Shown: positions 36,765 through 38,993 of the stretch, piece by piece | How the letters are laid out: the number at the start of each line of letters is the position of its first letter | How positions within the stretch are numbered: position 1 is the first letter of the stretch | Assembly (NCBI GenBank): GCA_020724225.1 | Contig: DYHI01000003.1 | Location: 1,103-65,102, forward strand | Length of the DNA stretch: 64,000 bases | Direction of reading: 5' to 3' | Origin: Candidatus Altimarinus sp. | GTDB taxonomy: Bacteria; Patescibacteriota; Gracilibacteria; BD1-5; UBA6164 | Made by a program: the position numbers and the translations under genes | Notes under the pieces: model-generated | Databases searched by the model: none | What the model was told of the DNA's origin: nothing | Seen by the model: only the letters and a program-made list of their open reading frames with translations

Positions 36765-38993
36765 TTAAAATATCTCCTCAATCCCCACAACTTTTACCCC
36801 CAACTCCTGTGCCTTTTTCAATTTACTTCCTACCTCTTTTCAGACAATCAAGAAATCTAGTTTTTTAGAAACAGATCATATAAACTCTGCTCCTTCTTTT
36901 TCCATCATCTCAATTATCTCTTCCCTGCTATAATTTTCAAAACTTCCAGTTATACAAAATCTCTTTCAAGCATATTTTCATATTCACTCTTGTTTTTTCT
37001 CAAATTTTATATCTAATATTTCTAATAATTTTGATAAAAGTTCCTTTTTTGATGAATCAGTGAAAAAATCATAAACTGCAATAGATGTTTCTGGTCAAAA
37101 ATCTTCAAGTCTAAGCAAATCATCTACAGAGTATTTAAAATCAAGTAAATCCTCTTTTGAATTAAAAACTTTTGATAAAACTTTTGCTGTTTTTTTCCCT
37201 ACTCATTCTATTCAAAGTGCTGTGATAAATGAAACTATATCTTGTTTTTTTGCTTTTTCTATTGCTTCTAGCAAATTTGAAACGGATTTTTCTTTGAATC
37301 ATTCAAGGCCAAGTAATTTTTCCTTTTTTTCTTTTAAGTTAAATACATCTACTAAATCTTTTATAAACCCAAGTTCCAAAAACAAAATTACTTGTTTTTC
37401 TCAAAGTCAATCTATATCAAATCAAGTCTTCCCTACAGCATAAATAATATGCAACTCTAATTGTGCCTTACATCCAAATTTATTTGGACAATAATACCTT
37501 ACTTTTCATTCATCCTTTGAAACTGGAGTTTGGCAAATAGGACACACTTTTGGTATATCTATTTTTTGTTCAATTCAAGTTCTTATCTCTTTTATAGGTG
37601 CAACAACTTCCGGAATCACTTCTCATGCTCTTTTTATCCATACACTATCACCTATCATAACTCACTTCTTTTCTACTTCATCATAATTATGTAGTGTAGC
37701 TCTTTTTACAATTACTCATCACACATTTACAGGAGATAAGTTTGCAACTGGAGTAATAGTTCAAGTTCTACCTACACTATGCTCTATACTTTCTATTTTT
37801 GTTCTTACAAGTTCTGCTGGAAATTTATATGCTATTGCATATCTTGGGTGATGCTCTGTAAATCAAATTGTATTCCAAAGCGAAATATCATTTACTTTTA
37901 ATACTAGTCCATCTATATCAAAATCTATAGTTTTTTTTGTATCTCAGAAATTATCTATTGCTTTTATAACTTCGATTATACCATTACACACTTTGAAATA
38001 TGAAGAAATCTCAAATCAAAGTTCGTTTAAATCTTTTATGACTTCAAAATATGTTTCTTTTTTTTCTTTTATCCTGAATTCTTCAAAATTTGCCAAATCA
38101 TAAGCAAAAAATTTCAAATTTCTTTTTTTTGTTATAGAAGTATCAATAGTTCTCAGACTTCAACTTGCTGCATTTCTAGGATTTGCAAATATCTTTCATC
38201 ATGATTCTAGTGCTTCTTCATTCAATTTATTAAAACTAGAAATTGGCATAACAACTTCTCATCTTACTTCTAAGTCATCTTTGTATGAAATAGTTTTTGG
38301 AATATTTGAAATCTGCATAACATTTTCAGTTATATCTTCTCACTCTATACCATTTCATCTAGTAATAGCTTGTGTAAGTTTTCAATCTTTATAAATTAGT
38401 TCAACACCAAGTCAGTCAAATTTGAATTCAATACAATAGTTTATTTGTCATTCCCCACTATATTGTCATTCCTGACCTGTTACTATATTGTCATCCTCAT
38501 GGGCCTGTACCCTTGAGGGTATGACACGGGGATCTATTAAATTGTCATTTTCCTTTTTATAGATTCCTGCCTTCGCAGGAATGACAGGAGAAGATATTTC
38601 ATTTAATTTTTCATTTTTCACTTTTCACTTTTCACTTTTCACAATTTTTCTCACTCTATCATCAAAATCATTCAAATCTTCCTCATTATATGTATTATCT
38701 AAACTTATCATAGGTCTAGAATGAGATACTTTTTCAAAACTAGATTCTTTTACTATTGCTCAAACTTGTGATGTTCACATAAACTCTATTCAGAATTTTT
38801 CTTCTAAAAACTTCAGTTTTGCGAAAAGCTCATCATATTCAAAATCGCTTATAACTGGAGCTTCTTTGTTATAGTATAAGTTACTATGTTCTTCAATTAC
38901 TTTTTGTAAATCATTTACCTCAAAAGAAAGAATTTCATCAGAATCTTTTTGTAAGAAATAGTTGGATTTTTCAATAAGACGATTTAATTCCAT
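36765..38993 (-). CDS. ligA: NAD-dependent DNA ligase LigA with an in-frame repeat-element insertion and a heptamer tract
   Basis: N-terminal ...[18 protein letters not shown]. KxDG adenylation motif [17 protein letters not shown]-terminal BRCT ...[21 protein letters not shown]. 742 aa. The frame through 38400-38700 was checked codon by codon. Confidence 0.9.
38447..38585 (-). repeat. Palindromic modular element, longest (4-5 module) copy, in frame in ligA
   Basis: Reverse complement reads gtcattcctgcgaaggcaggaatctat...atagatccccgtgtcataccctcaagggtacaggcccatgaggatgac...gtcaggaatgacaa...ggggaatgacaa. Encodes [47 protein letters not shown]. Confidence 0.9.
38615..38642. repeat. (TTTTCAC)x4 perfect tandem heptamer inside ligA
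   Basis: Four exact copies. On the coding strand GTGAAAA x4 encodes part of VKSEKGKVKNEK. Confidence 0.95.

Follow-up and report, generated by a model that had tools for sequence, protein, structure and literature searches.

The ligA gene of Candidatus Altimarinus sp., which encodes an NAD-dependent DNA ligase, carries an in-frame insert of 141 nt a short distance upstream of the codons for its catalytic lysine motif. The gene lies in a stretch of 64,000 nt of contig DYHI01000003.1 (positions 1,103 to 65,102; assembly GCA_020724225.1), called the window below. The insert is very probably a cluster of small, non-autonomous repetitive extragenic palindromic sequences (REPs) with CGTC or TGTC tags, equivalent in behaviour to the Rickettsia palindromic element (RPE). 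Most likely, judging by its sequence, it is translated together with ligA and gives a floppy surface loop of the enzyme. An earlier reading made from the sequence alone had pointed to a structured, repeated and modular element in an intact ligA, and this description holds: the first hairpin of the element occurs 11 times in the window against 0.10 occurrences expected, and a comparison of its folding with that of shuffled sequence gave z = -5.4 for DNA and -4.4 for RNA.

The G+C content of the window is 24%, and the genome is about 95% coding, as estimated from stop-to-stop open reading frames (ORFs). Translation table 11 gives only 2 ORFs of at least 150 aa, compared with 60 when table 4 or 25 is used, and the nearest homologues are named Candidatus Gracilibacteria. 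The ligA gene contains 36 sense TGA codons. TGA in this gene falls at conserved glycines, including the invariant glycine of the KxDG motif, which indicates that TGA is read as glycine (code 25). All domains of LigA are present (Ia, adenylation, OB, Zn finger, helix-hairpin-helix (HhH) and BRCT), with matches to the Pfam families PF01653, PF03120, PF03119, PF12826 and PF00533. The protein matches the E. coli LigA structure 2OWO with E = 1e-131, and the alignment to this structure equates K191 with the catalytic K115 of E. coli. The features of the gene and of its insert are as follows.

36768-38993, minus strand: ligA, NAD-dependent DNA ligase, 742 codons under code 25; an ORF only under tables 4 and 25
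38412-38423, minus strand: KxDG adenylation motif (K-F-D-G), AAATTTGACTGA, with TGA as the Gly codon
38446-38586, minus strand: whole in-frame REP cluster, 141 nt or 47 codons, from the TGTC tag to the GACA tag
38560-38586, minus strand: module A, a forward REP, TGTC-ATTCCTGC-GAAG-GCAGGAAT-CTA
38537-38559, minus strand: spacer between modules A and B, TAAAAAGGAAAATGACAATTTAA, conserved in five window copies
38489-38536, minus strand: module B, an inverted REP, reading TGTC-ATCCTCATG-23-nt loop-CACGGGGAT-CTA on the plus strand
38502-38524, minus strand: expanded loop of module B, delimited by alignment of the window copies
38508-38521, minus strand: mini-hairpin tacccttgagggta within the loop of module B
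38464-38488, minus strand: module C1, an arm of an inverted REP-A, truncated, ATATAGTAACAGGTCAGGAAT-GACA; contains a TGA (Gly) in frame
38446-38463, minus strand: module C2, another truncated arm, likewise inverted, ATATAGTGGGGAAT-GACA; contains a TGA (Gly) in frame
38608-38642, minus strand: tandem repeat of 7 nt in five copies, TTTTCAC on the plus strand and GTGAAAA in the sense of ligA

It is very unlikely that ligA is a decaying or non-functional gene whose work is done by another ligase encoded elsewhere. The genome beyond the window could hold a second ligase, but the frame of 742 codons is uninterrupted under code 25, and the protein fits all 96 invariant columns of an alignment of 120 sequences, including the KxDG motif, the four cysteines of the Zn finger, HhH and BRCT. 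Comparable inserts occur in the intact ligA of several related genomes. A second ligase gene had been named as a point to check; no other LigA-like gene was found in the window, which was the range searched.

The insert is built of hairpin modules. Module A consists of a tag, an 8-bp stem, a 4-nt loop and a 3-nt tail, and encodes VIPAKAGIY. Module B in its canonical form reads TGTC-ATCCTCGTG-CTTGA-CACGGGGAT-CTA on the opposite strand, with a stem of 9 bp (ATCCTCGTG/CACGGGGAT, one mismatch) and a loop of 5 nt. In ligA this loop is 23 nt long, compared with 5 nt in the other copies; the additional 18 nt correspond to six codons and keep the frame. The mini-hairpin that the sequence-only reading had described inside module B lies in this expanded loop. 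Modules A and B form an inverted heterodimer with the tags facing outward and the conserved spacer between them, which holds an additional ATGACA tag-like end. The terminal inverted repeats TGTCATTCC...GGAATGACA are 9-11 nt long, and the arms of C1 and C2 end in GGAATGACA. The modules are thus ordinary CGTC/TGTC-tagged REP hairpins and their truncated arms, and do not represent a novel module system. At two metagenomic loci, L124 and L163, a complete REP is followed by tandem arrays of half-REPs, each made of a spacer of about 15 nt and GAGGATGACA, with a period of about 25 nt. These arrays resemble C1 and C2, and suggest a general route of addition of tagged arms.

The borders of the insert differ slightly from those proposed before. 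Translation of 38447-38585 (minus strand) under code 25 does give the peptide attributed to it, and the insert is in frame, but the length of 139 nt fell one base short at each end. Its closeness to the KxDG motif is real as well; the gap is of two residues rather than three, the peptide ending in ...GEGQ before YCIEFKFDG, and the 3′ end of the cluster lies 8 residues before the catalytic K191. Two of the inserted codons are TGA, as had been noticed (residues 182 and 188 of the stop-to-stop ORF). LigA residues 122-182 (61 residues) stand where E. coli LigA has a single residue. Fifteen of them belong to an adjacent low-complexity tract, encoded mostly by the 7-nt tandem repeat, and the remainder is the REP cluster. 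The 7-nt repeat, which encodes KSEKGKVKNEK, is located in ligA directly upstream of the cluster and makes up the other part of the enlarged loop, where it is modelled as a helix extension. Since its period is not a multiple of three, the essential ligA would be thrown out of frame if the repeat slipped by one unit.

The element is a member of a dispersed family. At least nine clusters are present in the 64-kb window, and 6/9 of them are inside genes. Besides the ligA cluster, the following copies were located.

15181-15292, plus strand: A, B and a degenerate C, in frame within the gene of a polyprenyl synthetase (15088-16200)
15832-15940, plus strand: A, B and C, in frame in the same polyprenyl synthetase gene (15088-16200)
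20915-20995, minus strand: A and B, in frame in a uracil-5 RNA methyltransferase gene (20189-21709)
23228-23311, minus strand: A and B, in frame in a metallo-beta-lactamase-fold gene (22943-24571)
41784-41810, minus strand: module A alone, in frame within the gene of an AMP-binding enzyme (41300-42817)
12448-12591: two intergenic REPs that face opposite ways (12448-12475 on the plus strand, 12565-12591 on the minus strand)
24582-24608, plus strand: intergenic REP-A with a CGTC tag
61845-61871, minus strand: REP-A tagged with CGTC, upstream of the codon at which the gene ending at 63575 probably starts

The unit of A, spacer and B recurs in five window copies. The copy in ligA is the longest, as had been claimed (141 nt, compared with about 81-112 nt in the other four copies with A and B and less than 45 nt in those with A only). 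The copy at 15832-15940 sits between the two Asp-rich motifs of the polyprenyl synthetase. In the window copies the stem of module B shows compensatory changes (GTG/CAC, GTA/TAC and AGA/TCT). The B motif was found in at least 120 metagenome contigs, and its three free stem pairs are complementary in 121/122 metagenome copies, in 9 different combinations. A combined pattern of A and B at a fixed spacing of 13 nt had no metagenome match, the source contig included. Species-representative genomes of many phyla contain the 27-nt A motif, in at least 112 stretches, often followed by its inverted partner; its hosts are Flavobacteriaceae, Gammaproteobacteria, several Patescibacteria, Ignavibacteria, Planctomycetota and Dehalococcoidia. 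Many genera of Flavobacteriaceae share an identical 27-nt REP-A at apparently the same intergenic spot (L005, L013, L026, L039 and L044, with further loci L066, L091, L105, L108 and L114), after a gene ending in ...ELNYN* and before a terminator-like hairpin (aaagccttca...tgaaggcttt). This shared position may point to a role that is conserved or to an insertion of great age.

The six intragenic copies, located in genes of five different enzymes, are all in one orientation and in one frame (6/6), which reads VIPAxAGIYKK. This shared hydrophilic frame is free of stops in 6/6 coding copies, and each of the other frames contains a stop in at least two of them. The inverted arms read GAA-TGA-CAA, so reading through them depends on TGA being glycine. 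The same TGA-dependent frame of the inverted arm is found in the LigA orthologues P0003, P0004, P0006 and P0007. The arm GGAATGACA is translatable here only because TGA is read as glycine, and this is the fresh point of the finding.

The insert might instead be removed before the mature protein is formed, by intron-like excision of RNA, translational bypassing or intein-like splicing; removal at the RNA level had been raised by the sequence-only reading. The element is strongly structured as RNA, with the z-score of -4.4 given above, but such removal is highly improbable. Excision at the RNA level would need no open frame, yet an open and specific frame is kept in 6/6 intragenic copies, as it is in every insert examined in ligA orthologues. 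With 141 nt the element is too small for a group I or group II intron. It matches no Rfam family, by which it differs from self-splicing introns and known structured RNAs: no match at the gathering score was found in the window, and a search of 38350-38700 with E values up to 10 gave only sub-threshold matches far below gathering scores. Bypassing is opposed by the lack of a stop codon and of matched take-off and landing codons. An intein comprises at least about 130 residues, begins with Cys or Ser and ends in His-Asn followed by Cys, Ser or Thr. The insert has 47 residues, too few for an intein; the first is Val and the last Gln, followed by Ile, and the junction residues of splicing are absent.

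By its organisation the element falls within the superfamily of CGTC-tagged REPs described by Di Nocera, De Gregorio and Rocco in 2013 (PMC3733652), and it works like them. These are defined by a C/TGTC tag, a stem of 8-9 bp starting with A-T and T-A, a loop of 4-5 nt and a tail of 3 nt; they occur mostly as inverted dimers with conserved spacers, and no dedicated transposase is known for them (PMC3733652). In the ligA copy and most window copies the stem is preceded by TGTC or CGTC, with CGTC at 24582 and 61871. The stems of modules A and B are 8 and 9 bp long, as are those of the described REPs, and start with the A-T and T-A pairs; stems of 9 bp are found in the families CGTC-3/4 (PMC3733652). 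The loop length agrees in A (4 nt) and canonical B (5 nt), and the 23-nt loop of B in ligA is an exception. Dispersal and inverted pairing are evident too, in the clusters of the 64-kb window and in the mutual inversion of A and B. The published families are very similar across phyla; CGTC-1 includes dRS3 of Neisseria and RPE-6 of Rickettsia conorii, and CGTC-4 corresponds to RPE-4 (PMC3733652). Occasional intragenic copies have been reported as well, often in genes of replication and repair (uvrA, uvrB, dnaE and a DNA ligase) (PMC3733652). The present case differs in its host phylum, Gracilibacteria of the candidate phyla radiation, which is outside the published survey. It differs also in the high intragenic share of its clusters, in the tandem truncated half-REP arms, and in one frame containing a TGA that is read as glycine.

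The second likeness is to the RPEs (Ogata et al. 2000, 2002). According to the summary in PMC10969869, they are elements of about 100-150 nt inserted in frame in unrelated housekeeping genes, with a consistent reading frame and an encoded peptide judged compatible with the fold of the host protein. Insertion into unrelated genes in a preferred frame is found here in the same way, in 6/6 copies and five enzymes, and a fold-compatible surface peptide is indicated by the structure model, in which the loop is disordered and the LigA fold is kept. The host lineage and the genetic code are different. The likeness is one of behaviour; a relation to RPEs would run only through the CGTC superfamily, which includes RPE-4 and RPE-6 on the word of PMC3733652. 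In-frame insertion of palindromes is a known kind of event, and the ligA insert reveals no new mechanism.

Two other types of mobile repeats share some features with the element. The REPIN-RAYT system of Bertels and Rainey, dated 2011, is said to have GTAG-type tags and to be accompanied by a RAYT (Y1 transposase) gene. The resemblance is in the repeated unit of two inverted REPs with a spacer, and in vertical inheritance and long persistence, but the tag here is of the CGTC type. Classical MITEs (miniature transposable elements with inverted repeats), such as the Correia and ERIC elements, are similarly short and non-autonomous, have terminal inverted repeats and can make in-frame fusions. 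Unlike MITEs, the present element contains two or more separate REP hairpins, and the five aligned copies show no target-site duplication. In some organisms of metagenomes, with a G+C content of about 40% (loci L120-L185, many of them Ga0153916 contigs), the inverted REP dimer is nested in a longer MITE-like repeat with terminal inverted repeats of its own, CTGTCCATAAA...TTTATGGACAG. Literature searches that combined Gracilibacteria or the candidate phyla radiation with REP or RPE found no earlier description.

Modelling of the structure had been proposed as a check, and an AlphaFold2 model was built on the 120-sequence alignment. The mean predicted local distance difference test score (pLDDT) of the model is 81. 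Residues 134-180, which come after a helix (residues 104-132), have pLDDT values below 50 and lack secondary structure; next comes a strand (185-192) that contains K191. The insert is modelled at pLDDT 31-40 beside a well-folded adenylation domain. The structures returned by Foldseek are those of LigA, and the TM-scores of adenylation domains reach 0.83. According to the model, the LigA fold and catalytic motifs are kept and the insert forms a loop that is disordered; strand geometry would place the anchor of the loop roughly at least 20 Å from the lysine.

The position of the insert was compared in 120 LigA homologues with identities of 50-79%. Their segment R113-K191 comprises 22 residues in the median and up to 83 at most. 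At least 10 extra residues at this loop are present in 41/120 homologues, and the next most used site, the only other one that recurs, has such additions in 5/120. Judged by these sequences, it is mainly at this loop that the LigA of this clade tolerates insertions. Its occupants include CGTC REPs with various stems and palindromes of the VIANxSEAIQ and PLxxGEG types. The closest orthologue (P0002, 79% identical) and P0012 have no REPs in this loop, and P0003, P0004, P0006, P0007 and P0115 have other CGTC-type REPs there. P0004 contains a complete inverted REP-A at the position of C1, after the identical junction GACAATATAGTAA, and the junction GACAAYATAGT is common to four lineages. On the neighbour-joining tree of LigA, the distribution of REPs is patchy. 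The patchy pattern and the shared junction fit an old insertion with turnover and losses; repeated insertion is the alternative. The sequence TATAGT in the insert-free P0002 was considered as a trace of excision. This candidate is unsupported: its codon phase differs, and such a sequence is frequent in DNA of 24% G+C. The second, minor insertion site, after query residue 308, is the one with at least 10 extra residues in 5/120 homologues; its inserts, for example NPPTAPLIKGELKG in P0023, P0026 and P0028, also look palindrome-derived, and the LigA of the window has none.

The only other record of the exact gene, L001, is of the same assembly and differs only by a run of N, so it provides no independent confirmation of the sequence. 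A repeat-induced chimera created during assembly is extremely improbable nevertheless, since REPs are found in the same loop in the independent assemblies GCA_041659565.1, GCA_010119095.1, JAGXIW01, SRR24957565 (Logan) and ERZ28505417 (ENA), some of which share the junction sequence, and the reading frame is preserved exactly.

The loop might also have been co-opted, either as a peptide or through hairpins of mRNA or DNA useful for ligA. It could bind a partner, make translation pause after domain Ia and before the adenylation domain, or regulate the stability of the transcript. REP-derived inserts do persist at this loop across several species-level lineages, always in frame, and their hairpins are maintained through compensatory changes. 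Moreover, an orthologue with 66% identity from Gracilibacteria JBAZXZ010000001 (L022, about 3040-3090) keeps the methyltransferase REP at the same site (HKYLDVIPAEAGIYKKG), with module A present and module B absent; therefore such inserts persist through speciation. However, the peptide of the loop is not conserved: it derives from different REP subfamilies and unrelated palindromes, and many close relatives have none. The same element occurs in unrelated enzymes, the loop is predicted to be disordered, and the conservation of hairpins is equally explained by propagation of the repeat. Co-option thus seems unlikely, and we infer that the insert is neutral.

The sequence-only reading had judged it unexpected that an essential enzyme tolerates a structured insert so close to its active site. 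A structured insert is indeed there, but the surprise is weakened, because the loop is the dominant insertion-tolerant site of the clade and because the closeness to the lysine is in sequence only, with eight beta-strand residues between and the insert itself modelled as disordered. In addition, genes of housekeeping, replication and repair are already known to contain palindromic repeats in frame, and the modules are of the ordinary tagged REP kind.

The history of the insert as a REP cluster may be outlined as follows. An inverted REP dimer (A and B with outward tags) would have entered or been built up in the surface loop between a helix and the strand of the KxDG lysine. Later remodelling may have expanded the loop of B and added, or left behind, the truncated arms C1 and C2. 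The only versions to survive selection would have been those that keep the frame and encode a hydrophilic peptide. The element would be transcribed and translated with ligA, yielding a disordered loop of 47 residues with the ligase fold and motifs intact, and read-through of the inverted arms would be possible only since the lineage decodes TGA as glycine. By analogy with other REPs and the IS200/IS605 family, a single-strand hairpin mechanism is the likeliest mode of movement.

Several observations weigh against this interpretation. The tail is CTA in nearly all window copies, whereas the published consensus is CCA (PMC3733652). The window copies are 75-89% identical over aligned stretches, which gives no sign of recent movement. 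No target-site duplication was seen at the flanks of the five aligned copies, and the flanking sequence has diverged too far to be compared exactly with an empty site. The patchy occurrence of REPs on the tree of LigA agrees with one old insertion followed by losses and with repeated insertions alike. No Pfam match to the RAYT/Y1 transposase family (PF01797) was obtained among the 10 small unannotated ORFs of the window that were scanned. Translation of the insert is deduced from its sequence, and the model was built on a code-4 translation with Trp at the 36 TGA positions.

Other repeats are present in the window. Two terminator-like palindromes of 47 nt (61203-61249 and 61771-61817; AAAAAACTATTTTCAA...TTGAAAATAGTTTTTT) are 96% identical and flank a ParE-toxin-like ORF at 61387-61758. 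Repeats with a period of about 105 nt, located at 51822-52639 within an ORF of 570 codons (51721-53430), encode Asp-rich, Cys-containing units (DxDxDGxxDxxDNC-like).

The findings are modestly new in three respects: the frame that depends on code 25, the large proportion of clusters lying inside genes, in a genome with about 95% of coding sequence, and the quantified insertion hotspot of LigA. Selfish palindromes in protein genes, best known from Rickettsia, thus also occur in Gracilibacteria, whose genomes are tiny, gene-dense and recoded, and palindromic insertion has here come within a few residues of the catalytic motif of an enzyme essential for replication. Loops derived from REPs are to be expected when genes are called and sequences aligned in these lineages; peptides such as VIPAKAGIY or ...EGQ... 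are footprints of repeats and not domains, and the LigA loop is a natural permissive site usable for engineering. The requirement for TGA as glycine at the inverted arm offers a testable link between a change of the genetic code and tolerance of mobile DNA. A bolder proposal, which has a small chance of being right, is that the reassignment of TGA to glycine opened a closed frame (the GGAATGACA arm) of a pan-bacterial REP family and that the ligA loop is actively and repeatedly targeted for integration, instead of being passively permissive. If this were true, REPs would colonise and remodel protein loops far more freely in code-25 hosts than in hosts with the standard code, and REP turnover would be a real source of loop diversity in genomes of the candidate phyla radiation, where very little non-coding DNA is left for repeats.

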